A program made the position numbers and the translations under genes. Below the pieces are notes generated by a model. It had not been told where the DNA came from. It did not search any database and saw only the letters and a program-made list of their open reading frames with translations. This document shows positions 3,927 through 19,187 of a stretch of 19,187 nucleotides of DNA, one piece after another (the stretch's first letter is position 1; the number at the start of each line of letters is the position of its first letter). Origin of the DNA: Candidatus Asgardarchaeum abyssi (GTDB taxonomy: Archaea > Asgardarchaeota > Asgardarchaeia > Asgardarchaeales > Asgardarchaeaceae). Location: the NCBI GenBank assembly GCA_040225955.1, contig JBECUL010000042.1, positions 1-19,187 on the forward strand, given 5' to 3'.

Positions 3927-4361
3927 TTTTCCTTTTCCCCTCTCTTATACAACTAGTATGATGAGAAAACAAATATAAAATCTTTTTAGGATGCTGATGA
4001 CACTACATAAGACAAGCAGAACCAGAATAAAACGCTCTCTACTTTGCCTGCTCAACAAAACACGGAAAGGGTATTTAAGCACCTCGGCTCGATACAATAA
4101 CTCATATTAAATAACCCATTGCAACAAAAATCCATATCTGCTCGTCACAGAAAACTTGATTTCACCTACCCGCAACCAATCCGTTATAATTCAAATCTCT
4201 ATCTATTCATATAACCACTTATTTTACATTCACCTTCAACCTCCTCGAAACTATAACTCACAAAAACCACACCCCAGCCAATTTAATAGTGTATTACACC
4301 AGTAAAAAGAAATCTAATAGCTTATTTTTTGAAAATAAGTTAGAAAAAACCTCTATTTTAA

Positions 4362-4378
4362 GAAAAAAGCTTATATAG
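4362..4378 (+). promoter_or_regulatory. Candidate BRE/TATA promoter for module copy 1
   Basis: GAAAAAAGC-TTATATAG lies upstream of SD GGAGGTG (4431-4437) and ATG 4443. Confidence 0.5.
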
Positions 4379-4442
4379 TAGTTTTTAAATAGAAATAAGT
4401 AATTAGATTGGAAATTGTGGATTTTGAATTGGAGGTGTTAAT

Positions 4443-4943
4443 ATGAGTGGAGGTAGAAGGTATAATGGGCCGACGGGCCTGGGTGTATGGTTACAGAGGA
4501 CTCATAGAAGGAGGAGAAGGACGGAGCAAGAACTTAGAGTTAGGAGGATGTTAGAGGAGCTGAGAGTGGAGTTTGAGGAGCAGTATGCGATTATGTTAGG
4601 GTATAATGAGGGGAGGCCTGGAGTGAGGAGGGGGGAGGGAGTGAATTGGGCAGTGGTAGATTTTTTCATAAGGGGGAAGAGGAGGGACATAGTATTAGAA
4701 TGTGGGCAATACAACATGGGAAAGAGTAGAAATCACTTGATGGAGAGAGTAAGGATAAAATCACGGGAACTCAACTTGAGATTTTTTGAGATGAAGTCAC
4801 GCTATGATTTAGTATGTGTGGCGTTCATAGAGGCGCCGGTTGTGGATCTTAAGGAGTACATAGCTCCGAGAATACCATATGCAGATTTTGTGGTGGATAG
4901 CCTTTCTGAGCTTAAGAGAGTTATCAGAAAACTGACTAGATGA
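4443..4943 (+). CDS. Vsr/DUF559-like (restriction endonuclease fold) protein, copy 1
   Basis: Pattern TEQE...L...F..QY.I...VVDFF...IVLEC. Strong SD. About 80% identical by manual alignment to 13278-13784. Confidence 0.7.
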   Translation: MSGGRRYNGPTGLGVWLQRTHRRRRRTEQELRVRRMLEELRVEFEEQYAIMLGYNEGRPGVRRGEGVNWAVVDFFIRGKRRDIVLECGQYNMGKSRNHLMERVRIKSRELNLRFFEMKSRYDLVCVAFIEAPVVDLKEYIAPRIPYADFVVDSLSELKRVIRKLTR

Positions 4944-4954
4944 GATGATGGATT

Positions 4955-5422
4955 TTGCCTAGGGATGTAGAAAGTAGATTGTTTGACAGGATTGCCGAGC
5001 AAACCACATTAAGTGTGCAAATTTATAGTACTTTAAACACTCTTAGGAGGTTACTTTCCGAGAAGAGGGAATTTTTAGATTTTTTAAGGGGGATACTGGG
5101 TTGGGAAAAGGGTTCTGTTTTCAAGAAAAAAGTAAGGAACAGAAAGGGTGGAAGAACGTACCGCTACTATTATCTGCGGATTAGTAATGGTGGAAAGAGA
5201 TATGATATATATCTTGGAAGATATTGCGATGAGCTAAAACATATAAGACGTCTTGCGCGAAAAATATCAAGTATAGATAGGAGGATAGACAAGGGGCTAA
5301 CAGCAATGCGGGAATTAGTAGATATATTAAGGGAGCTGGATGATACTGCTAAGAGAATGTTAGAATTAATTAAGAGTAAAAAGGAATTTAGGAGACCTAA
5401 ACTACTATCAATGAATAGTTAG
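4955..5422 (+). CDS. Coiled-coil protein with a central beta-sheet DNA-binding-like motif (DUF6788 / SSV1 D-335 N-terminus-like), copy 1
   Basis: GSVFKKKVRNRKGGRTYRYYYLRISNGGKRYDIYLGR flanked by long amphipathic helices. Paralog at 13799-14242. TTG start. Confidence 0.6.
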   Translation: MPRDVESRLFDRIAEQTTLSVQIYSTLNTLRRLLSEKREFLDFLRGILGWEKGSVFKKKVRNRKGGRTYRYYYLRISNGGKRYDIYLGRYCDELKHIRRLARKISSIDRRIDKGLTAMRELVDILRELDDTAKRMLELIKSKKEFRRPKLLSMNS

Positions 5423-5600
5423 GTTATCAAGAGGGATGGATGGGATGATAGATTTGCTTAAGATGTAGGAAGTAAGTTGTTTGATGGGTACTGGCTGGAG
5501 AGGAGTTATTTTTTATGAAAGTAACTATTAAATATATCTTTTTATCTAATTTGTTAATAATTTCTTTTTGTTGCCATAACATTTTCTAGGGAGGTTTTCC

Positions 5601-8513
5601 ATGAGCAGCTTGCAAATGAATCCAGATGAGGTTTTATCACCCTTGCTGAGAAAACTCTATAAATCAACGAAAAATGTTGCTAAGGGCAAAAAGAATAGAC
5701 ATCACAATCGGTTTACCGTATATGACTTACGAGAAAAATTTATTGAAAAATGTTACCCTGATGAGCAAGCTAATAAAAAAATCTTTAGATCACCTATTAG
5801 TTGCTTTAAAGAAGTTCTACGAAACTTTATTAAGGAATATAAAAATGATGGGGATAAATTTCGAGAGTGCATCAATGTTTTGATGAAAAATCTCGAATTT
5901 TCTAATGATCGAGAAGATTCGAATGAATTAGAGCTTAGCGGCGAAAAGCTAAAGACTATTATAAGTAAAACTATAAAAATATCAATAAAGAAAAGTAAAA
6001 TATTTCCTCATACCTCTCGCAAAGACCTTATAAAAAATATTGACAATACGATTGAAAAAATTATAAAAGATGACAAGAAAAAATATTCTTTTAAGTTAGA
6101 AGAGCTAGTAGAAGAGATATCTATTCGCTACGAGAGTAGTAAGGAGACATCCAGTAAAAGAGTATCTAGCGAAAAAAGTATTATTAAAAAATATAATCTT
6201 ACATTTGAATTTATTTTTGGTTTTGATCGTGAGAAAAAAGACCCTAAGGAAAAATCTATATTGATAGAGTTTCGAAATATATCAGTAAGGTTACCAAACT
6301 ATGATATAATAAATATAATGGAGAAGAAATTACTTGATGAATTATTTAATAAAAAACTCAATAGGGAATTATCAAAGTTCGTGTTCAAATTTATACATGC
6401 TTTACTCTACTTTTTATATCAAAATTTAGAAAATCCTACAAAATTAATTAACGCTCTACAGATAGAGAGTGATAAGGATATTAAAAATTACCTTAGAATT
6501 TTACTTTTTCATTTCCACTCAATAGATGGACTGATTTGGGCTTGTTTTAAGCACGAGGTTTGCAAGAGTTGTATTGCAGCTAAAGAATATACTCTATCAA
6601 CTGGGAGAGAAAAAATAATACGTGACCCAATGTACGGTGATATGATCTTTGAACCTGACGAGATTGTACTCATTGATACTTGTTATATGCAAAGATTAAG
6701 GCGTATTAGACAAATGGGTTTTCTTGACTTCATCTTTCCAGATGCTGTTAACACAAGGTTTGACCATTCTCTAGGAGTTGCACATATCGCTAAGAGAATA
6801 TATAGTCTACTTAAAAAAAGAGGTTTATTTAAAAAAATTTTTTCTGATATAGTTGCTAATAGTGAACTATGTAAAAATCTTAAGGAGAAAGAAAAAGAAA
6901 GAATTATAAATTTAGTAACTAAATTGGAAGAAAAAGTGGTTACATATGCTGCAATTCTCCATGATATAGGTCATGTTCCCTTTTCTCATACTGGGGAAGG
7001 CTACTATAACATACTCATAGAAGGAAATAATAATTCGAGGAATAACTTAAAAAAGTTGCAACTAAATGAACTACGACATAAAATTTTAAAAGAGAAACCG
7101 CACGAGGGAAATGGGTTTTTTCTTATTGTTGAACGAAAGAAAACCCTTACCACGCCTGCTGGATTAAATGCAATACCCATCACAAAAAATTCTAAACTTC
7201 GAAAAGAGGCTATATTTAAAAATTGTTTATACATAACTTTAAAAAAACTTTTTGAATATTATCTGACTCAACAAATAAAAAAATTAAATCTAAATATCAA
7301 AATTAAAGAAAATGCAAAAGAGACTATATTAGATCTTTTAATTGCTAGAGTTGCATTGTATATTATAAATTTAAATAAAGATAAACTCTTTGAGAATGCA
7401 AAAGAATACCTCAAAGAAATAAAATATCCCATAGAATCAAAAAACGACAAGCTATGTATGGAAAATGAGATGTTTATGAGATGTCTATATATTATTAACA
7501 AGGAACTTACAGAGAATGCAGATCATTATCCATTTCATGAAATAATTAATGGCGAGTGGATAGATGCAGATAAATTAGACTACTATTTCAGAAATGCATA
7601 TTTTTCGGGACATGAATTCATAATTGGTCATAGAGACCGAATCATCAATTCTATAAGTATATGTAAAAATGCTAATGGAAAATATTTTCTTTCCGTATAT
7701 GGAAAATCTATAGATACTGCTTACTCTCTCATTTTCAATCGTTATTTTCTGGATAAAGCCATTCATTCCCATCCATTAAACTTAGGTATGGAACACATCA
7801 TGAAACGTTTATTAAGGGAATATAAAGAATCTCTGATAAAAAAGAAAATTGTCGATTTATCAAAAGTTTATGAAGAATGGAAGAGACTACTCAGAAATAA
7901 TGATATTGAATTTATTAGTTTATTATTAAATGAATTTATTAAAAATCGACTTTTTGATAAAGCTGCAGAATTATTTAAGCTAATGCATAGGTCAAAATTA
8001 AAAACATTTACTATAATTGAGTTATTCACACTAAACAATAATAAAAAATTAAAAAAAGTATTAAATGACTTAGAGGAAAAAATTAAAAAAAACGACAAAA
8101 AACATTTATTCATTTATATAAGAGAGGAAAGATCACCGACAGAATCTTTGAATGCCTTTTCTAAGATAAGATCTTTTATGCGTACTAAGGGTATTTCTGA
8201 CCTAACTTGTGAAGACGAAGAGAGCTACTTAAAAACCATACATAATCCTGGTGAGAAGGAAACTATTCTAGCTAGGTTGTTCATCTATATTGATATGTCC
8301 CATTTATTTGATATCATGAAGTCCACGAATGAATCTATATACAATATATTAGATAAACAAAGAAAATGTATAAATGAAATAGTAGATAAGCTGAATAAAA
8401 ATAAAGAAGATTATGAAATAAAAATCAGAACAATTAGACCTTTATTAGGGAACCGTTCAAACTTTCTTTCAATGCAAAAAAGATGCCACGAAAATAGGTC
8501 TGAAAAACGATGA
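5601..8513 (+). CDS. Large HD-domain dNTP triphosphohydrolase-like protein (SAMHD1/COG1078-like core with a ~340-aa N-terminal extension)
   Basis: IRDPMYG, MQRLRRIRQMG, TRFDHSLGVAH, ILHDIGHVPFSH, HE and DADKLDY motifs. SD GGAGG. The last ~25 codons overlap IS-derived sequence. Confidence 0.88.
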   Translation: MSSLQMNPDEVLSPLLRKLYKSTKNVAKGKKNRHHNRFTVYDLREKFIEKCYPDEQANKKIFRSPISCFKEVLRNFIKEYKNDGDKFRECINVLMKNLEFSNDREDSNELELSGEKLKTIISKTIKISIKKSKIFPHTSRKDLIKNIDNTIEKIIKDDKKKYSFKLEELVEEISIRYESSKETSSKRVSSEKSIIKKYNLTFEFIFGFDREKKDPKEKSILIEFRNISVRLPNYDIINIMEKKLLDELFNKKLNRELSKFVFKFIHALLYFLYQNLENPTKLINALQIESDKDIKNYLRILLFHFHSIDGLIWACFKHEVCKSCIAAKEYTLSTGREKIIRDPMYGDMIFEPDEIVLIDTCYMQRLRRIRQMGFLDFIFPDAVNTRFDHSLGVAHIAKRIYSLLKKRGLFKKIFSDIVANSELCKNLKEKEKERIINLVTKLEEKVVTYAAILHDIGHVPFSHTGEGYYNILIEGNNNSRNNLKKLQLNELRHKILKEKPHEGNGFFLIVERKKTLTTPAGLNAIPITKNSKLRKEAIFKNCLYITLKKLFEYYLTQQIKKLNLNIKIKENAKETILDLLIARVALYIINLNKDKLFENAKEYLKEIKYPIESKNDKLCMENEMFMRCLYIINKELTENADHYPFHEIINGEWIDADKLDYYFRNAYFSGHEFIIGHRDRIINSISICKNANGKYFLSVYGKSIDTAYSLIFNRYFLDKAIHSHPLNLGMEHIMKRLLREYKESLIKKKIVDLSKVYEEWKRLLRNNDIEFISLLLNEFIKNRLFDKAAELFKLMHRSKLKTFTIIELFTLNNNKKLKKVLNDLEEKIKKNDKKHLFIYIREERSPTESLNAFSKIRSFMRTKGISDLTCEDEESYLKTIHNPGEKETILARLFIYIDMSHLFDIMKSTNESIYNILDKQRKCINEIVDKLNKNKEDYEIKIRTIRPLLGNRSNFLSMQKRCHENRSEKR

Positions 8514-9087
8514 TCCACGCAGCAGTGGAAAACATTTCGATTCAAAAAGCAATGCCCCCTAAACCACCAACATTAATAATGATATTTTACAGTATAATCT
8601 CTCTAGACTCAGATTTAATGACGCCGAAATGGATATAGTATATCAAAAATATAATCGCGCATCTAAGAAAGCTTATTAAAAAATTTCATTTATAGTTAAC
8701 TTGATAGACCATCGGTTCTACGAGCTTATTTAAATCCATACACATTACATTACAAAATAAATGTATGTTTCATTATATCGTGATATTGATTGCGGCATAT
8801 AAGGTAGCAATTTCAATAACCGTATTTCCTCAGCTGGACAGTGTAACAAAGCCTCTCGAGCTATTAAGTCTCTAAAGATTAAAATCATCTATATGGACCG
8901 TGGATTTTATTCGATCAGCGTGATTAAGTTACTCAAAAGACTTAAGCTAATATTCATTATCTATTCGGCTGAGATACATTGTATGAAACTAGTTCTGAAG
9001 AGCATTCTTAAAGATGAGTCTCTTCATAAGATAGATATGAAACAAAGAATAGTAGTTAAGTGCAGAGTTGCTGGTTTACCTGCCTGA
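8439..9087 (+). mobile_element. Degraded ISH3-family DDE transposase fragment (N-terminal half)
   Basis: Across frameshifts it reads FIREPFKLSFNAKK / MIHAAVENISIQ ... SLKIKIIYMDRGFYSISVIKLLKRLKLIFII, with the DRGF catalytic motif. Many stops. Boundaries are approximate. Confidence 0.75.
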
Positions 9088-9138
9088 TGGACGAAAGAAA
9101 ACAGAGCTAGTCCATAGTAATAAGTTCCAGAGTTGGTG

Positions 9139-10281
9139 TTAAGGAGTTAGAAGATGAATTGGCATTCCAGAAAATGCCTCCCAGTGTTTATAATCTTTAA
9201 TCAAGATATTTAAAAGTTCTTTCTCATCTTTAAACAAAGAGATGTGAGATGGATTATTCTGAGCAAAGTACTCGATAAATGGACTTGGCCTTTTCGAAAA
9301 TGGATAATAGATATAAATAGGCTTACCCCATCTATATGCATACGCTATTTCACTCATAACACCCGCAGACACATTCGGTGAGTGATGATAAACAACAATT
9401 GCATGACTATTAAATACCATATTAAAATCACGCTTAACAATTTGTTTTCTTAGAATATTTGTTGCATTTTCTATATCATCCCTATTTAATACTATCTGAT
9501 TTTCGCCTTGTTTAGGATCATGGAAGTCTATTTTTATAACTTGGGCATTACTATTCTTTTCGATTTGGTTATCGTACTCATTTACAATTCGCCAATCATC
9601 AATAGTTCCAGGATCTAAAACTATAAAGTATCTACTTAGCGCTCGAGCAAAATTTCGGGTTCTTTTAAAGACATCCTTTTTTGATTCAAAGCCAGTCATA
9701 GGATAACTTAAGTATACTCGTTTCTTTCTTGAATCGTTAAAGAGAATATCAATGAATGTTTCTGAAGGATGATTTCTTGAGAATTGTAAAATATACTCCA
9801 AACTAAACGATTCAATATTTTTTGATAATTTTGTAATTATATTTTCGATGTATCTTATGGCTTCTTCTCGCCACTCTGCTAACTTAGTTATACGTACTTT
9901 GTTTTCATCTCTATCAAAACGAGGAAACCAGTCGGGATCATTAATTATCCTTTGACGAACATTTAAAACATTGTCAATTATTATTAATATCTTTTTAGGA
10001 TTTAGCATCTTTATTATGTCATCATCAAAACCTTCAACTTGTTCACCATTCCATCTAAAAAGAGATGGGGTGCTTACTATGTGGGTCTTTTTGTCACTCT
10101 GGATTATCTTCTTTACTATTAATTCAAATGCAGCTCGCTGAAACTCACTTATTAATTCTTTATTTCGGATGGCAAATTCTAGCACTGTTTTTCTATCTAT
10201 AATATATCCTCTCTTTGAAGCCACCTTTTGAAAATTCATGGAGGACTGAGGCGGATCTTGGTGTCTAGGGAGCGTACTCAT
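9139..10281 (-). CDS. Adenylate/NMP kinase-like domain (P-loop missing) fused to a nucleoside 2-deoxyribosyltransferase-like domain; 5'-truncated chimera
   Basis: The N-half HIVSTPSLFRW...GFDDDIIKMLNPKKILIIID...RQRI resembles archaeal AdkA-like kinases. The C-half RVYLSYPMT...LDPG...RDFNMVFNSHAIVV...SAGVMSEIAYAYRWGKPIY matches NDT/RCL motifs. No Walker A is present. Confidence 0.75.
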   Translation of the reverse strand: MSTLPRHQDPPQSSMNFQKVASKRGYIIDRKTVLEFAIRNKELISEFQRAAFELIVKKIIQSDKKTHIVSTPSLFRWNGEQVEGFDDDIIKMLNPKKILIIIDNVLNVRQRIINDPDWFPRFDRDENKVRITKLAEWREEAIRYIENIITKLSKNIESFSLEYILQFSRNHPSETFIDILFNDSRKKRVYLSYPMTGFESKKDVFKRTRNFARALSRYFIVLDPGTIDDWRIVNEYDNQIEKNSNAQVIKIDFHDPKQGENQIVLNRDDIENATNILRKQIVKRDFNMVFNSHAIVVYHHSPNVSAGVMSEIAYAYRWGKPIYIYYPFSKRPSPFIEYFAQNNPSHISLFKDEKELLNILIKDYKHWEAFSGMPIHLLTP

Positions 10282-10305
10282 TTCGAAAATAGTGCGGAAG
10301 TACTG
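10240..10305 (-). mobile_element. ISH3-family left end with the first codons of a probable transposase
   Basis: Minus strand CAGTACTTCCGCA-CTATTTTCGAA-ATG followed by MSTLPRHQDPPQSS. The terminal 13-mer is identical to 65-77. Confidence 0.6.
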
Positions 10306-10691
10306 TTAGAGACATCAGATATATATACAGGGAATGTCATTGTACATAATATCATTGAGACTGATAATGGATGTGTGAAACATATGATTGAGCTGAAGGG
10401 ATGAGAATTTCGTAATGAGATCACAATTCGTTATAGACGGACTTTTGTGAGATATCACAGCTGATTTTTGATGTATTCACAAATTAGTTAAGCATTTAAC
10501 ATCCTTCAGTTGTGTAGAGTTAGAGTCTATTCTTTATGATGTTGATTTTCATAAAGCTCTGTATAGTACGTCACGTGCCTTCAAGAACACACTAAAAGAA
10601 TAAAACGCTGTTATGAAAAGATGCAAGATGTTTCCAGTTAAGCCTAATTAGAAAAATTACATAACTATCATCAAAATAAAGTAATAAGGTA

Positions 10692-10754
10692 TCAACCCCC
10701 TCGGGGCATCCGAGGGGGTTGAATGCCCTACATGGGCAACACACCTACACGGTG
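10692..10754. ncRNA. Candidate structured RNA/DNA element: three consecutive hairpins
   Basis: TCAACCCCCTCGG-GGCAT-CCGAGGGGGTTGA (13-bp perfect stem), TGCCC-TACAT-GGGCA and CACC-TACAC-GGTG form a GC island inside very AT-rich DNA. Confidence 0.45.
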
Positions 10755-11744
10755 ACCTGCGCATTTTTATTTATAATTCTTGAAATATAAAAAATTAACT
10801 CTATCTATTGATTTTTTTGAACTTTTTAAATCTCGATATATACTTCCTTTTTCAAAAATAAAAATTTTTTGAATTTTAGCAATTTAATTGTCAAAATTTA
10901 ATTAAAATAATGAAAAATATTAATAATGAATACTCCGCATTATAAACAATTTTGATATCAAAGGAGAATAGTTAAAGAGCAAATATTCTATCCTCTATCT
11001 CGAACTCTTAATTACATTATTCTGTATTATAGATAGATAGTTTGATTAGATAGAACCAAAATAAAACTAACAATTGTGATAGTGTATAAGTACTTATAAG
11101 AATAGTCACAGAATTATAAATGAAAATGGCGCCACAAATTGATAGGTTGCGGTGAACGTTTTATCTACAAATTTTGAATTACACTGTATCAGAAGCTAAG
11201 TAGTTTAATCCCATTCTTAATAATTCATCGTGCAGTATCCTAAAATAGAACTTATTAGTGCTAAAGACGCAATAAAGATGCAATTTAAACTTTTATCTAT
11301 CATAATGGTTTGTGCATGGAAAATAAGGTGAATCTAATTGAATATGAACTAATGGTTTACCTAAAAATTAAAGAGTTAGTAAATAATTAATTGGGTTGAT
11401 CGTTAAGAAAAAAGGCATTGGTAAAACTATTACGATTTTCTATTATAACAAAGAGAATTTATGATATAGTAATATACTGGCATGTTTTCAAAAGACTCTT
11501 TTAAATTAAAAGGATTAAGATAAAAGTAGATATCATCTAAAGCACAAAATTGAAAGATACTGGAGCTTACTAATTTCAATCCTATCAGCAATTCTCTTTA
11601 CAACACTTAGGCTCGCTATAGGCATCTTACTATAACAGTCTCAACTTCTTATGATAAAAAGAAAATAGTGACTATTTTAAAAGCAAAAGCCCTCTGATAC
11701 CCATTACGAACCTTGACCCATGCTGATTTTAAGAAAAAAGTTTC

Positions 11745-11928
11745 CCCAGAGGGTTTAAGCCCGATTGGGCTTTGGGCTCTGGGTACCCATTAACATACCC
11801 TCTGCTAGAGGGTGCTTATTTTATGAGAGGAAGAAATATTAGAAATATGCTTCTGGGATGATTTATACCCTATCGGGTACTGGGTGTGGCGGCACCCGTT
11901 AGATCTCACTCCCTATGGGGAGAGAGAT
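11745..11928. other. Cluster of five GC-rich hairpins
   Basis: CCCAGAG..AAGCCC-GATT-GGGCTT..CTCTGGG (11745-11783); ACCCTCT-GCT-AGAGGGT (11797-11813); TACCC-TATC-GGGTA (11866-11879); GGGTG-N6-CACCC (11882-11897); ATCTCaCTCCC-TATG-GGGAGaGAGAT (11903-11928). Confidence 0.6.
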
Positions 11929-12657
11929 TACTTTTTGAGAGAAGAGTTAACATCTTATTGTTTAAAGGGAAATGGGGGCGTATTTTGGAGAGAGAATTGT
12001 GTAAATTTTAAAACATATGATTTAGGGTTTACTGATAGTTTAAGGAGTTGGCTCATTGGTAGTGTTGATGGTATTTTGTTTTGTGAATTAATTTATTTTG
12101 AAAGCTATGGTGATTTGATTTTAATTGTTAATGGAAACTGGTTATTTAGTGGTTTATTTGAACTTGGAGTCCTACTAAAGGACAGAACCGTTTTTTCACT
12201 TTTTAGCCGGATGCATTGGTCTTTTGGTTATGAAATGGCATTTTCCTTCGTGTTTTGGAATCTGATTGCATCGATATTTTTGAGGAATAGCTATCTTCTT
12301 GATTTGAAGAGAGCTTTAGGAGACCGTTTAGCTTATCTTGGTAGTACAAGGTTGTCAATTCTTTTCGGGCATAGGGATCTTTTTGATCTTTCGAGAGAGG
12401 TTAGAGAGATTTTAGCTGGTCTTGATTGTGAATGGGCGGCAATTTTTCTGGGGTATAGGGATTTTTTCGATTTGGGGATTGGGGTTAGAATTGATTTAGG
12501 CTGGTTTGCGGGGGACTTTTCAAATTTTGGATTTGGGGGCGGGATTTATTTTATTTTGTGGAGGGCGATTAGAATTGATTTAGAGTTTGTTGTCGGATTA
12601 AGGTTTGCGAGCACGGTTTTTCTGTTTTCAAAAGGGTACCTTTTGAAAGGGGGTTGA
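11884..12657 (+). CDS. Hypothetical protein (F/G/L/D-rich); start uncertain
   Basis: 257-codon ORF with the G/T-rich codon bias of this block. Its stop overlaps the next start (TTGATG). Internal near-repeat HRDLFDL/YRDFFDL. The GTG start lies inside a hairpin. Confidence 0.5.
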   Translation: MWRHPLDLTPYGERDYFLREELTSYCLKGNGGVFWRENCVNFKTYDLGFTDSLRSWLIGSVDGILFCELIYFESYGDLILIVNGNWLFSGLFELGVLLKDRTVFSLFSRMHWSFGYEMAFSFVFWNLIASIFLRNSYLLDLKRALGDRLAYLGSTRLSILFGHRDLFDLSREVREILAGLDCEWAAIFLGYRDFFDLGIGVRIDLGWFAGDFSNFGFGGGIYFILWRAIRIDLEFVVGLRFASTVFLFSKGYLLKGG

Positions 12658-13265
12658 TGGATTTTGAGGGGGCTGAGGAATTATCTTCTTGGGTTCTTCC
12701 GTTTGGAGATTTGGATGTTTCTGTATTGAGTGGTGATTTACCGAGGGAGAACTGGATATTTGGTCTTGATTTTATGTTTTTGCTCATCGATGAGCGTATG
12801 AGCCACATTGTCGGGGTTGATAGTTCTTGGGGAAAAGAAAATAGCCTATATGCCAGAGGGCTCGGGTTTTCATATATTTGGGTATCACCTCCAGAAATAA
12901 GAAGTTGTGACGGATATAAAAATTACGAGGAAGTTTATTTCCCTAGGAGGGTTGGAAACTCCCTTTGCGGCGACTTCTATTATTGTGGGAGTTGGGTTCT
13001 TTCGGTGCCTTGCAAGCTTTTTGTTTTGCGGATGGGACCTAGATTTTTTCCAGCTAGCTTTAAGATGAGAGTTCGGGAATTGGAGTTTGAGAGCCGGATT
13101 TATTTCACCTTGCGGAGAGCATATAGTTTTGTTTTTGCGGAGGTAATGTTTGTGGTCCTGTGGCTTTTTGTTTTCAAGGTGATATCATTTTCTGCAATGC
13201 CCATTTCATGGTTCTCATATTTTATGGTTCTCCACCCTCGCAATACTTTAAAAATGATAGGTTAG
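12654..13265 (+). CDS. Hypothetical protein with a hydrophobic C-terminal segment (start TTG 12654 or ATG 12657)
   Basis: 203-codon ORF with SD-like AAAGGGGG, coupled to the upstream ORF and ending at the SD of the next gene. Confidence 0.55.
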   Translation: MMDFEGAEELSSWVLPFGDLDVSVLSGDLPRENWIFGLDFMFLLIDERMSHIVGVDSSWGKENSLYARGLGFSYIWVSPPEIRSCDGYKNYEEVYFPRRVGNSLCGDFYYCGSWVLSVPCKLFVLRMGPRFFPASFKMRVRELEFESRIYFTLRRAYSFVFAEVMFVVLWLFVFKVISFSAMPISWFSYFMVLHPRNTLKMIG

Positions 13266-13277
13266 GAGGTGATTGGA

Positions 13278-13784
13278 ATGATATCGGATAATAATAGGAG
13301 GTATTCTGGACTCGTCGGATTGGGGGTGTGGCTGCAGAACACACATAGGAAAAGGAGAAGGACGGAACAGGAGATTGAAGTGAGGGAAATGTTAGAGGAG
13401 CTGGGAGTGGAGTTTGAGGAGCAATATGCAATTTCATTGGGTTACAATGATGGACGGCCCGGCGTTAGGAGGGAAATGGGGGTTAACTGGGCGGTTGTTG
13501 ATTTCTTCATAAGGGGAAAGAAGAGGGATATAGTTCTCGAATGCGGCCGCTATAAGATGGGCAAGAGCAGAAACCACTTGATGGAGAGGATAAGGATAAA
13601 GTCAAGGGAACTAAATTTAAGATTTTTCGAGATGAAATCAAGGTATGACTTGGTATGTGTGGCGTTCATAGAGGCACCAGTTCCTGATCTTAAGGAGTAC
13701 ATTGAGCCGAGGGTACCATACGCGGATTTCGTAGTTGATAATTTTGAGGATTTGAGGAGATTGATAGCAAGACTTGTTGAATGA
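13278..13784 (+). CDS. Vsr/DUF559-like protein, copy 2
   Basis: Same motifs as 4443-4943. SD GGAGGTGA favours ATG 13278 over GTG 13269. Confidence 0.7.
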   Translation: MISDNNRRYSGLVGLGVWLQNTHRKRRRTEQEIEVREMLEELGVEFEEQYAISLGYNDGRPGVRREMGVNWAVVDFFIRGKKRDIVLECGRYKMGKSRNHLMERIRIKSRELNLRFFEMKSRYDLVCVAFIEAPVPDLKEYIEPRVPYADFVVDNFEDLRRLIARLVE

Positions 13785-13798
13785 TGAGCTGAAGAGAA

Positions 13799-14242
13799 AT
13801 GGTTGTGAGTAAGGGTTTTTCACAAGAGCTGCTCGATAGGATTTCGGAGCAAACATCGCTAACAATACGGATAGGAAACTTGATTGGTGAACTGATGAGG
13901 TTAATTGCGGAAAAGAAAGATTTTCTAGATTTCCTGAAATCAAAGCTTGGTGATGGTAGAGGCTCGATATTTCTGAAGATGGTAAGGAACAGAAGAGGAG
14001 GCAATGTCTACTACTATTACTATTGGAGATTTTCGGAGAACGGGAAAAGATACGATGCATATTTAGGAAGACACGGATATGATAGTAAAATTTTGAATTA
14101 TTTTTCAAAGAGGGTAAACAACCTGAGCAGAAAATTGGATGAGATCGTAAGTACTATGTATCATCTCATGGGGATTTTAAGAGAGTTGGATGACTTATCA
14201 AAAGAACTGCAAGAGCATATGAATGAGAAGGAGGAGTATTAA
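13799..14242 (+). CDS. Coiled-coil / beta-sheet DNA-binding-like protein, copy 2
   Basis: GSIFLKMVRNRRGGNVYYYYYWRFSENGKRYDAYLGR. Roughly 40% identical by eye to 4955-5422. Confidence 0.6.
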   Translation: MVVSKGFSQELLDRISEQTSLTIRIGNLIGELMRLIAEKKDFLDFLKSKLGDGRGSIFLKMVRNRRGGNVYYYYYWRFSENGKRYDAYLGRHGYDSKILNYFSKRVNNLSRKLDEIVSTMYHLMGILRELDDLSKELQEHMNEKEEY

Positions 14243-14247
14243 GGTGG

Positions 14248-14277
14248 TTAGGTGCAGTGAGAAATAAGTGCACCTAA
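14248..14277. terminator. Inverted repeat between convergent genes (terminator or protein-binding site)
   Basis: TTAGGTGCA-N12-TGCACCTAA, 5 nt after the stop at 14242. Confidence 0.4.
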
Positions 14278-14339
14278 TCATGTTTTATCGTACCACCACG
14301 GATTATATGGTTCCAATAGTCTCATAGCATCATTAATTC

Positions 14340-14624
14340 TCATTGTCGTCCCTCACTCAGTTCACGTACTGCTTTCCATAAGAGAGCTACCTCCTTTCCA
14401 ATACGCCCAAGCTCCCTATTTGTTCTCTCTATCATCTTCTCGAGGCGATTTATTCTTCTGGTAATATTAGCCATATCTGTAGCCTTGCCCTCTTCAACTA
14501 ACTGCTTGAGCAACATATTTTTTATATAGAGGTTTGGACTCTTAAATCCCTCTTTTTCAGCCAATTGCTTTATTTTTTCGAATAGCTTCTCATCGATTCT
14601 GAACTGAATTACTCTGGAGACCAT
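14340..14624 (-). CDS. Ribbon-helix-helix (CopG/Arc/MetJ-like) protein with C-terminal coiled coil
   Basis: RVIQFRIDEKLFEKIKQLAEKEGFKSPNLYIKNML fits the beta-strand + two helices pattern, followed by heptad-like ITRRINRLEKMIERTNREL. Confidence 0.8.
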   Translation of the reverse strand: MVSRVIQFRIDEKLFEKIKQLAEKEGFKSPNLYIKNMLLKQLVEEGKATDMANITRRINRLEKMIERTNRELGRIGKEVALLWKAVRELSEGRQ

Positions 14625-14634
14625 GTCATATCAC

Positions 14635-14706
14635 TGTATACAATCTGTATACAGAATGTATATATCTCTTTCTATTAGTATACAATTTGTATACTAATTG
14701 TATACA
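14635..14706. promoter_or_regulatory. Phased palindromic GTATAC array over the RHH gene promoter
   Basis: GTATAC at 14636, 14647, 14658 (GTATAT), 14678, 14689 and 14700: two triplets with 11-bp spacing. Minus-strand AAAGAG-ATATATAC BRE/TATA-like motif at about 14658-14671. Confidence 0.75.
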
Positions 14707-14839: not shown

Positions 14840-15169
14840 GTGATGCAAATGCTCTTAGTTTATAAAGATGAAATTATCAAGCAAATTGTTCAAGACTACG
14901 TGAATACGGATGAAAATCTCTTAGCGGTTATTCTTTACGGGTCTGTAGCGAGGGGGGATTTTAAACCGGATAGCGATATAGATTTGTTACTCATAACCAA
15001 AAATGTAAAGAAAACAAGAAAATTATTCTCTGACTTCCGTGAAGAAGTTTTTACGAAAACAAATGTTATAATTTCCGCGGTTTACGTAACTCCCGAAATG
15101 TACAACGACCCAAAAAATCCATTAATGAGAAGAATAAAAGCAGAGGGGATGGTTCTTTGGAAAAAATAG
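14840..15169 (+). CDS. Minimal nucleotidyltransferase (MNT), antitoxin-like
   Basis: AVILYGSVARGDFKPDSDIDLLLI motif, ~109 aa, overlaps the HEPN gene. Confidence 0.92.
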   Translation: MMQMLLVYKDEIIKQIVQDYVNTDENLLAVILYGSVARGDFKPDSDIDLLLITKNVKKTRKLFSDFREEVFTKTNVIISAVYVTPEMYNDPKNPLMRRIKAEGMVLWKK

Positions 15170-15564
15170 AAGATATACGGGAATTAGTAAAGGTCTACTT
15201 GGAAAAGGCAGAAGAAAAACTTAGGAGCGCAAAAGTTTTGTTAAAAGAAAAATTTGTTGATGACGCAATTAGCAGAGCGTATTACTCCGCATTCCTTTCA
15301 GCAAAAGCTCTTTTACTGCTACTCGGGTCGGATGTTAAAACGCATTCTGGCTTAATTACAATGTTCAACCTGAAGGTTGTTAGAGGAGGACTTCTTCCTA
15401 GAGAGATTGGAAGGTATCTAAGTGAGTTATTTGAGGCTAGGCAAACCTCGGACTATTCCCCTATCTCTCTTTTTGACATAGAAGATGCAAAAGAGTATAT
15501 TAAAAAAGCGGAACTACTTTTGTCTGCAGTAAAAGAGATCATTTACAAAAGGATAGGAGTTTAA
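15157..15564 (+). CDS. HEPN-domain protein (COG1895 type), partner of the MNT
   Basis: AISRAYYSAF, KALLLL, KTHSG and LFEARQTSDY motifs. Confidence 0.9.
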   Translation: MEKIEDIRELVKVYLEKAEEKLRSAKVLLKEKFVDDAISRAYYSAFLSAKALLLLLGSDVKTHSGLITMFNLKVVRGGLLPREIGRYLSELFEARQTSDYSPISLFDIEDAKEYIKKAELLLSAVKEIIYKRIGV

Positions 15565-17820: not shown

Positions 17821-19099
17821 TCATATCTCACCGATTTTTCCAAAGTCATTTAAATCGAAAAGCAAGTAATTTTTGCTGATTTCTTCTTTCTTCTCGATGT
17901 ACTTGGCCACGAGACTGTATATTATTCTCTTGTTTTCAAAGTATTTGCTCTTTCTCTTGAGATCCTTAATGATTCTCTCAGTCTCTGAGCTGACAAGCTC
18001 TTTCCACTTTATCTCTGTTAGGATTAACGTTTCATCGTCTGATGCTATGAGGTCTATTTTCTCATTTTTGTGCCACCATCGACCAATCTTCTTAATTTTT
18101 ATTGGCAACTCATTCCTACGACTTAACTCTATGAAAAACTCTTTTACTATTTGCTCAAATATGTATCCGAGATACGTGTTAAAGTTTTTCTCGAAATCTG
18201 AAATCGCCTCATCATTGAAGCCAGTCTCGATGTCCTCGAAGTATTTTGAAACGAAACGGAACCAGAAGTTGAAGTAGTTATCTCTAATTCGGTATATTCC
18301 GCCTTTTCTTTTCTTTGAGAATATGGGAAACTCCCGCTGAACAATTTCCAGGTCTCCAAGAACTTTTAAGTACTTTGACACATTCTTTGCTTCCATGAAA
18401 CAGTAGTTTGCAATTTCGGATACCCGTGTGTAACCGTGGGATATTGCTTCAGTTATCGCATAATATGTTTCTGGCTCATCAAATTCCTCCTCAAAAACCT
18501 CTTTAGCTTCTCTGAATAGGAAGCTACTCGGATCGAAAAAGTTGTTAATTATCTCCCTTTTCACATTCTTTCCTGAGAAGAACTCTAAATATCTGGGAAC
18601 TCCACCAGTCACAGCATAAATTTTAACTAAACTTTCTATGGAGGCCTTTGGAAACCACTCCATGAGATGCTTAAATTTTAGTGGTTGCAGAAATAATGTT
18701 GCATGACATCGACCGTATAGAGGGCTTGTATATTCATAAAAACTTCTTTTCAGCATACTAACTGCGGAGCCAGATAAGATCAAAAATACGTTTGTTTCTT
18801 TCAGTATTTCGTCAATTATTGTTTGGAATTCCGCTAAAACATCTGTCTCCTTTACCAGATATGAAAATTCATCCAGTGCTATAACCAACCGTGTATTACC
18901 AATTTGCTTTACTATGAACTCAAAAGCGTCACTAAATGATTTGAAGTTTGGTACAGGGATCCCAAAGAATTTCGCAATTGCTCTATTCATCTTATTTAGG
19001 TTCACTGCAGCTTTTCTTTTTTCGAACTGTATTCTTATCCCATTTTTGTTTTTCATGAATTCCAAAATCAGTCTGCTTTTTCCTATTCTCCTTCGTCCA
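17821..19099 (-). pseudogene. Archaeal ATPase, COG1672 type (ATPase_2 + DUF234), 5' end cut off by an IS insertion
   Basis: In-frame GRRRIGKSRLIL starts at 19098, directly after the IS end. Walker B IALDEFSYL, LYGR, TGGVPRYL, DNYFNFWFRFV and WW...IDLIA...EIKW motifs. The usual N-terminal F..RE.EL segment is absent. Confidence 0.88.
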
Positions 19100-19187
19100 T
19101 TGACCTCCTCCCCGCACTAAAGTGCGGGGAATCCTAAGATTCCCCGGCGGGGAGGTTCGACCATCCTCCACCGGGAAAAATCCCAGT
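19100..19187 (-). mobile_element. Right end of an IS200/IS605-family (TnpB-type) element; omegaRNA/reRNA-like region
   Basis: Minus strand TCCCCGCAC-TTTA-GTGCGGGGA-GGAGG-TCAA: subterminal hairpin then TCAA, typical of archaeal IS605 right ends. Further stems at 19126-19145 and 19143-19175. Confidence 0.82.

Follow-up and report, generated by a model that had tools for sequence, protein, structure and literature searches.

A predicted PD-(D/E)xK nuclease gene and its coiled-coil partner, present twice in an Asgard archaeal contig, and their relatives beside Cas1, TnpB and RAMP genes

Two groups of Asgard systems that combine Cas1 or TnpB with further genes have been described. ARAMP (Asgard RAMP) loci are array-less derivatives of CRISPR systems with RAMPs, "additional nucleases and uncharacterized proteins" and a distinct Cas1 (PMC8730458, the review through which alone ARAMP is known here, the primary description being Makarova et al. 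2020). Asgard Cas1 (aCas1)-TnpB transposons and IS607/IS605 TnpA-TnpB elements have likewise been reported (PMC10691335). We examined a pair of small genes, gene 1 and gene 2, that occurs twice in a stretch of 19,187 nucleotides (nt) from Candidatus Asgardarchaeum abyssi (contig JBECUL010000042.1 of assembly GCA_040225955.1), hereafter the window. The window is contig C42 of a 2.6 Mb metagenome-assembled genome of Asgard type (189 contigs, 93% complete). The four genes of the module are as follows, with protein lengths in amino acids (aa):

4443-4943, plus strand: gene 1, copy 1 (P0001, 166 aa), intact; predicted PD-(D/E)xK-fold nuclease with E30, D73 and E86-C87
4955-5422, plus strand: gene 2, copy 1 (P0002, 155 aa, TTG start), intact; N- and C-terminal coiled-coil segments flanking a basic Tyr-rich beta motif at residues ~53-90
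13269-13784, plus strand: gene 1, copy 2 (P0003, 171 aa, GTG start), intact; the ATG at 13278 is internal
13799-14242, plus strand: gene 2, copy 2 (P0004, 147 aa), intact

Comparison with described systems

The locus was compared with ARAMP by the description in the review only, and the identity of the ARAMP "nuclease" with the gene 1 family is not confirmed on this basis. As in ARAMP, relatives of gene 1 lead operons of a nuclease, a ~240 aa protein, a RAMP and a further gene that run divergent to a giant Cas1-like gene (loci L059, L032 and L052). Unlike ARAMP, the window contains neither a RAMP nor a Cas1 gene, and neither domain was detected among its open reading frames (ORFs). Gene 2 occupies the slot of the ~240 aa protein and is unrelated to it; kinship between the two was considered and rejected (hhalign probability 0.7%).

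Similar to the aCas1-TnpB and IS607 elements, some gene 1 relatives lie directly upstream of tnpB, in the position of tnpA and with gaps of 0-4 nt (L019, L020), and a Cas1-like gene is adjacent in L011 and L019. A small restriction-endonuclease-like gene is, however, not mentioned in the text describing these elements (PMC10691335). The window pair also differs from IS607/IS605 elements in having no TnpB: there were no OrfB_IS605 or Cas12f1-like TNB matches among the window ORFs, and none of the 10 TNB matches in the genome falls on contig C42. The gene 1 alignment lacks the serine-recombinase motifs of the IS607 TnpA, the Y1 HUH motif and the cysteine cluster of Cas4.

In cyanobacteria, XisH belongs to the excision-controlling pair XisH/XisI: its gene has a small partner gene as neighbour, is often present several times, and is associated with an element driven by a serine recombinase. 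The gene 1 model resembles XisH (structure 2okf) in its small PD-(D/E)xK fold (Z 8.9, root-mean-square deviation 3.1 over 116 residues), but the sequences are not similar, gene 2 does not resemble XisI and the hosts belong to different lineages. The sequence-only reading had likened gene 1 to Vsr. The superfamily fold is indeed shared with Vsr (1cw0) and NGO0050 (3hrl), and Vsr also lacks the canonical Lys. A specific kinship with Vsr/DUF559 was not borne out: helix 1 of gene 1 contains an invariant Glu, the histidine motif DG..H is missing, no Pfam match to a Vsr/DUF559 profile was found at E <= 1, and Vsr scored lower (Z 7.5) than the Can2 nuclease domain (Z 11.3) and PspGI (Z 10.7).

Our literature search found no paper on the gene 1 family as a common component of ARAMP, aCas1-TnpB and IS607 loci or on its pairing with gene 2, the primary ARAMP paper lying outside that search. 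ARAMP and Cas1-TnpB elements were found catalogued, with no paper on their mechanism or on experimental tests. The fold and the surrounding systems (ARAMP, aCas1-TnpB, IS607) are thus already known.

Two old copies, the predicted fold of gene 1 and the nature of gene 2

The same pair had been recognised from the letters alone as lying twice in one orientation with both copies intact, and this was confirmed with a corrected start of gene 1 in copy 2 (GTG at 13269). The spacing between gene 1 and gene 2 is 11-14 nt. The two gene 1 proteins are 80% identical over 164 aa (E 5e-100) and the two gene 2 proteins 43% identical over 145 aa (E 3e-43), in agreement with the earlier estimates of about 80% and 40% and with gene 1 being far more conserved than gene 2. 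Both gene 2 copies retain the block GS.F.K.VRNR.GG..Y.YYY.R.S..GKRYD.YLGR, as had been noted. Synonymous change between the gene 1 copies proved stronger than first claimed: Nei-Gojobori counting gave pS 0.71 and pN 0.14 (proportions of synonymous and non-synonymous sites that differ), with dN 0.155, dS saturated and omega about 0.07. For gene 2, dN was 0.53 and dS was again saturated. Compared with a 97.7%-identical metagenome contig (L010), gene 1 showed 8 synonymous and 2 non-synonymous differences, and gene 2 showed 4 and 3. Both genes are genuine and selection on them is purifying; with synonymous sites saturated and omega for gene 1 about 0.07, the copies are old paralogs and not products of a recent duplication. 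The G-rich character reported for the module DNA was also recovered, with a GC skew of +0.40 to +0.53 in 4501-5500 and 12001-14000 and of about 0 to -0.27 elsewhere.

Neither gene product matched Pfam, NCBIfam, PHROGs or PADLOC models at or above threshold, and a sequence search of gene 1 against solved structures gave no match. An earlier AlphaFold2 model of gene 1 from a 7-sequence alignment reached a mean predicted local distance difference test (pLDDT) of 55.5 and led to an uninformative fold search. It was replaced by a model from a 17-sequence alignment with members down to 22% identity (pLDDT 90.2, predicted template modelling score 0.85); pLDDT rose from 55 to 90.2 because distant relatives had been added. 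The model runs H28-39, E44-55, E66-76, E82-89, H96-118, E123-130 (H, helix; E, strand), an alpha-beta-beta-beta-alpha-beta core. Its structural matches by VIA-align are almost exclusively restriction-endonuclease-like nucleases, and a weaker Foldseek list contains proteins of the same kind. The VIA-align matches include:

Can2 nuclease domain: Z 11.3
PspGI: Z 10.7
Cdn1: Z 9.5
VC1899 and AF1548: Z 9.3
XisH: Z 8.9
Bax1: Z 8.8
NGO0050: Z 8.5
I-Bth0305I: Z 8.1
Vsr: Z 7.5, rank 24

Across the 17 sequences, E30, L37, D73 and E86 are the only invariant residues, and Q29, C87, F114, P142 and D148 are nearly invariant. The model places E30, D73 and E86 on helix 1, strand 2 and strand 3, respectively, at the canonical metal-binding positions. 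By its modelled fold and acidic residues gene 1 belongs to the PD-(D/E)xK (restriction endonuclease-like) superfamily, without the Lys of that motif, and would be a small metal-dependent DNA endonuclease. The distant family members read E-C-(W/T/S/V) in place of (D/E)xK. The missing Lys does not exclude membership, since some active members such as Vsr also lack it.

The gene 1 family is extremely rare, unannotated and mostly found in Asgard archaea. It forms five clusters in a database of 5.8 billion proteins, and an exhaustive HMMER search matched 13 clusters among 1.8 billion representatives. Within the phylum, the family was present in 15 of 400 genomes and 8 of 85 genera; these relatives were recovered only by profile search, and a single-protein search of 60 relatives gave none. 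The nearest outside relative comes from a "Candidatus Asgardarchaeia" assembly, and no relatives were found in public genome and viral contig collections. It was noted that the gene 1 domain is also fused into longer proteins, of 555 aa with a SAP domain, of >644 aa (open frame 1106 aa) and of 483 aa, and occurs in a 295 aa protein with an N-terminal extension (fusion set: L033, L038; P0026, P0027).

Gene 2 is represented by six clusters in the whole database, including a stand-alone 109 aa paralog elsewhere in the genome (L007). It had been proposed to resemble the DNA-binding domains of DUF6788 and the SSV1 integrase. This was not upheld: DUF6788 gave no Pfam match even at E <= 1, and the only traces were sub-threshold matches of copy 1 alone to Arm-DNA-bind_5 (E 0.062; 14.3 bits, cut-off 22.6) and Arm-DNA-bind_3 (E 0.092; 13.3 bits, cut-off 27). 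A gene 2 profile searched against solved structures retrieved coiled-coil proteins only, over residues ~84-135, which we regard as noise. Coiled-coil segments and a basic, Tyr-rich beta motif thus make up gene 2, which would be expected to bind DNA and to oligomerise.

Partners of the gene 1 family and the role of the pair

We sought to relate the pair to the neighbours of gene 1 across its family. Relatives of gene 1 almost always have a same-strand partner downstream, usually a few bases away. Within the close clade, termed class A, every locus that reaches beyond gene 1 has gene 2 directly after it. These loci are the two window copies, their population variants (L009, L010, L014), L008, L024 and L025 of the sister lineage, and L026. 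The linkage expected from the sequence-only reading therefore holds within class A, but gene 2 is confined to this narrow clade and other partners are found outside it. At least 20 loci carry a gene 1 relative without gene 2.

The genome contains four gene 1 copies, namely the two in the window, L003 and L004. The paralogs of 58% identity (L003 and L004 in this genome; L011, L012, L013 and L015 from metagenomes) have TnpB-like genes downstream; gene 1 and tnpB are separated in L003, L011 and L013 by what is left of an IS607 serine recombinase, a remnant of 46 residues. The distant relatives, of 22-36% identity, have the following partners:

TnpB: L019 (4-nt gap), L020 (adjacent), L042, L049 and L050
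HTH-LAGLIDADG protein: L016/L017 (overlapping) and L022 (weak)
tandem gene 1 paralog: L023 and L052
fusion into a longer protein: P0027, L033 and L038

A further arrangement, the RAMP cassette (L032, L052 and L059), occurs in one genus and a few other lineages. Here gene 1 overlaps by 4 nt with the gene of a ~240 aa protein, after which come a RAMP-superfamily protein and one more gene, in an operon divergent to a giant protein gene. The L059 cassette (G103:C21:72135-78335) was observed to be complete and array-less, with a 996 aa Cas1-like gene divergent to the gene 1 family nuclease, which is followed by genes for 242 aa, for a RAMP protein of 299 aa and for 294 aa. The cassette's insertion site has genes for an RNase P subunit and ribosomal protein L15e on one side and a subtilase gene on the other. 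The 996 aa protein aligns with a Cas1-like protein across the Cas1 helical motif. The suggested tie of the wider gene 1 family to mobile and defence nucleases is thus supported by TnpB, LAGLIDADG and RAMP/Cas1 neighbours.

We tentatively favour, as a possible rather than a probable reading, that the pair is a chromosomally retained offshoot of this Cas1/TnpB-associated nuclease family, with gene 2 as a putative DNA-binding adaptor. The reading is carried directly by the fold, the invariant acidic triad, the purifying selection on both genes, the linkage of gene 1 to gene 2 and the variable partners across the family; the promoter block shared upstream and the defence-type neighbourhood also speak for it. 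Gene 1 would be an active endonuclease that works with whichever gene comes next, and the second operon slot, held in relatives by the RNA-guided nuclease TnpB, an HTH-LAGLIDADG protein or the ~240 aa protein and a RAMP, would here be filled by gene 2. As a protein-only DNA-binding adaptor or regulator, gene 2 might direct or restrain the gene 1 nuclease through physical contact, and the pair may be inherited vertically as a two-component nuclease with a part in conflicts that involve mobile DNA. Several points weigh against this reading. The activity of gene 1 is not guaranteed because the canonical Lys of (D/E)xK is missing and the protein reads E86-C87-G88. Gene 2 reaches the threshold of no DNA-binding family. 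Direct evidence for binding between the two proteins is absent; a complex prediction for the pair, run without controls (score 0.00), speaks neither for nor against binding. Since TnpB and LAGLIDADG proteins themselves cut nucleic acid, to call the second slot a targeting partner may oversimplify. Function is also not directly transferable from the relatives because there is no Cas1, RAMP or TnpB gene in the window.

A bolder form of the same idea, which we consider unlikely, would give the gene 1 family the part of an all-purpose helper nuclease in Asgard systems based on Cas1, TnpB, LAGLIDADG or RAMP, with interchangeable DNA-targeting partners; gene 2 would then be a novel protein-only targeting subunit, and the pair a minimal two-component, site-specific (homing- or defence-type) nuclease evolved from RNA-guided elements. 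It is rather improbable that gene 1 is a domesticated, Cas4-like end-processing nuclease that normally serves Asgard Cas1, with the window copies as orphans whose Cas1 acts in trans or was lost and with gene 2 as an unrelated regulator. Cas4 is a precedent for a PD-(D/E)xK nuclease paired with Cas1, and a Cas1-like gene adjoins gene 1 relatives in three very distant loci: L011 (HTH-Zn-Cas1, Pfam E 4.5e-8), L019 and L059. However, in the 93%-complete genome no full-length relative of the L011 Cas1 was found, only a 38-residue tail; gene 1 has no Cas4 cysteine cluster, and many relatives' loci show TnpB or LAGLIDADG genes and no visible Cas1. Equally doubtful is a toxin-antitoxin or addiction module, in which gene 1 is a toxic nuclease, gene 2 its antitoxin, and persistence in variable islands results from post-segregational killing or abortive infection. 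The pair is a small two-gene operon in multiple copies, its surroundings include toxin-antitoxin-type and defence genes (an MNT-HEPN pair, a ribbon-helix-helix (RHH) gene and a PDC-S01 ATPase), gene 2 evolves faster than gene 1, and XisH-like PD-(D/E)xK proteins, which come from small gene pairs, are among the structural matches (Z 8.9). This proposal of the sequence-only reading is countered by relatives as close as 58% identity, and many distant ones, that lack any gene 2 and have TnpB, LAGLIDADG or RAMP genes instead, which indicates that gene 1 is tolerated without gene 2. Gene 2 also has no recognisable antitoxin DNA-binding fold (RHH, helix-turn-helix or AbrB).

More improbable still is a currently mobile element whose core is the pair, alone or with unseen ends, transposing or homing by repeated insertion at a hotspot with the 8 kb between the copies as cargo. 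Mobile contexts do surround the family, contig ends hold two of the genome's four copies, and the class B gene 1 segment (that attached to tnpB) is 95.5% identical in two left-hand contexts, L003 and L011, lying in L003 within an IS607 tnpA gene. This class B signal can be credited to the attached TnpB/IS607 parts, and recent mobility is visible only there. The synonymous divergence of the window copies is saturated, and outside the genes they share only a promoter block of roughly 130-240 nt (palindrome and BRE/TATA-like elements), which also precedes gene 1 in L003, L004 and L008. Downstream of gene 2 only a short hairpin is common, among copy-2-type loci only, and no terminal repeats or target duplications were found. 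Copy 2 has a syntenic ortholog in the sister genome, where a nearby DUF234 ATPase gene is 85% identical in DNA and the region upstream of the module is unrelated to the 5.6-11.7 kb segment of the window. No sign was found that a composite element carries the HD-dGTPase-like and kinase-NDT genes, which lie between the copies, as its cargo. The notion of a recently mobile element, or of two ends around a cargo, was thus not supported by the comparison; because of the few shared flanks, the lack of element ends and the synteny of copy 2, the pair appears to be vertically inherited within a variable island.

It was further observed that contig C44 carries an intact IS607-type element (L028, G000:C44:108-752, minus strand) with a 214 aa serine recombinase and the start of tnpB. 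In L003 (G000:C11) the gene 1 segment replaces the middle of the recombinase gene that is intact on C44, and the left edge of the segment holds ~30 nt from the end of a Cas1 gene, suggesting that Cas1-linked elements have recombined with IS607-linked ones.

These comparisons indicate that one small nuclease family runs through ARAMP, Cas1-TnpB and LAGLIDADG-linked Asgard loci and that a coiled-coil protein of 150 aa takes the place of the large effector in one clade. The pair offers a simple two-protein system for probing the role of the nuclease and a common handle for comparing Asgard mobile and defence modules that are not otherwise related. The comparisons also delimit, for annotation, a family without a current Pfam, NCBIfam, PHROG or PADLOC model.

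Transcription signals and neighbouring features

Judged from the archaeal consensus of the TFB-recognition element (BRE) and TATA box, each copy is predicted to be a self-contained operon with its own BRE/TATA promoter, copy 2 also having a terminal hairpin. The candidate signals are:

4200-4442, plus strand: upstream leader of copy 1, aligning with the regions upstream of gene 1 in L004/L012, L003 and L008
4321-4339, plus strand: palindrome CTTATTTTTTGAAAATAAG in the leader of copy 1
4361-4369, plus strand: BRE-like AGAAAAAAG of copy 1
4370-4377, plus strand: TATA-like CTTATATA of copy 1
4431-4437, plus strand: GGAGGTG ribosome-binding site of copy 1
11731-11823, plus strand: promoter block of copy 2, with BRE-like AAGAAAAAAG (11731-11740), a hairpin-rich insert of ~73 nt and TATA-like GCTTATTTTA (11814-11823)
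11884-13265, plus strand: G+T-rich stretch of 1.4 kb between the promoter block and gene 1 of copy 2, with open frames 11884-12657 and 12654-13265
14248-14288, plus strand: hairpin TTAGGTGCA (14248-14256) / TGCACCTAA (14269-14277) followed by a T-tract, retained 3' of gene 2 in L008, L010 and L026

The palindrome at 4321-4339 (CTTATTTT-N-AAAATAAG) lies ~30 nt upstream of the BRE/TATA elements, precedes gene 1 in 4 of 5 loci and is also conserved at loci without gene 2; it is a candidate operator. The insert at 11741-11813, with CCC/GGG arms and the palindrome GGGTACCC, is absent from the other copies and looks like a small insertion into the copy 2 promoter. Weak covariation was noted in the hairpin at 14248-14288, which with its T-tract is a likely transcript end.

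In copy 2 and L008 the promoter block lies 1.4-1.7 kb upstream of gene 1, ahead of the G+T-rich frame, which is absent from copy 1 and has counterparts at L008:2268-3899 and L024:1-960. Its runs of 257 and 203 open codons in the window, and of 543 in L008, are longer than in any shuffle. Substitutions in the frame look neutral (5 synonymous, 15 non-synonymous), the stretch has no codon periodicity and is poorly conserved, and its two conserved patches stand in swapped order between the two genomes. Where the window and L010 differ, half of the sites have G in the window and A in L010. The stretch could represent a transcribed leader that is free of constraint and subject to strand-biased deamination, a frame held open solely for translational coupling, or a very fast-evolving protein. 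A decayed Cas1 was also considered and rejected, as no similarity was found, and repeat and tandem-repeat scans detected no CRISPR-like array in the stretch.

The neighbourhood of the pair in the window is a defence-type island. An AAA_14/DUF4143 ATPase at 202-1479 strongly matches the candidate defence family PDC-S01 (E 6e-104), and a 970 aa HD protein at 5601-8513 matches a PADLOC dGTPase model over the HD core only (E 8.5e-13). Some of the neighbours are decayed, as had been stated, such as another HD gene, broken into 2573-2965 and 1659-2297. The Rfam scan returned nothing relevant; at the window edge (19087-19182, minus strand) the HgcC family RNA matches below threshold, with 36.4 bits where the gathering score is 50 (E 2.8e-5). 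Downstream of copy 2, an RHH gene (14340-14624, minus strand) is followed by a toxin-antitoxin-type MNT-HEPN pair of nucleotidyltransferase and HEPN genes (14840-15564), and an array of 11-nt repeats and palindromes at 14634-14706 lies between them.

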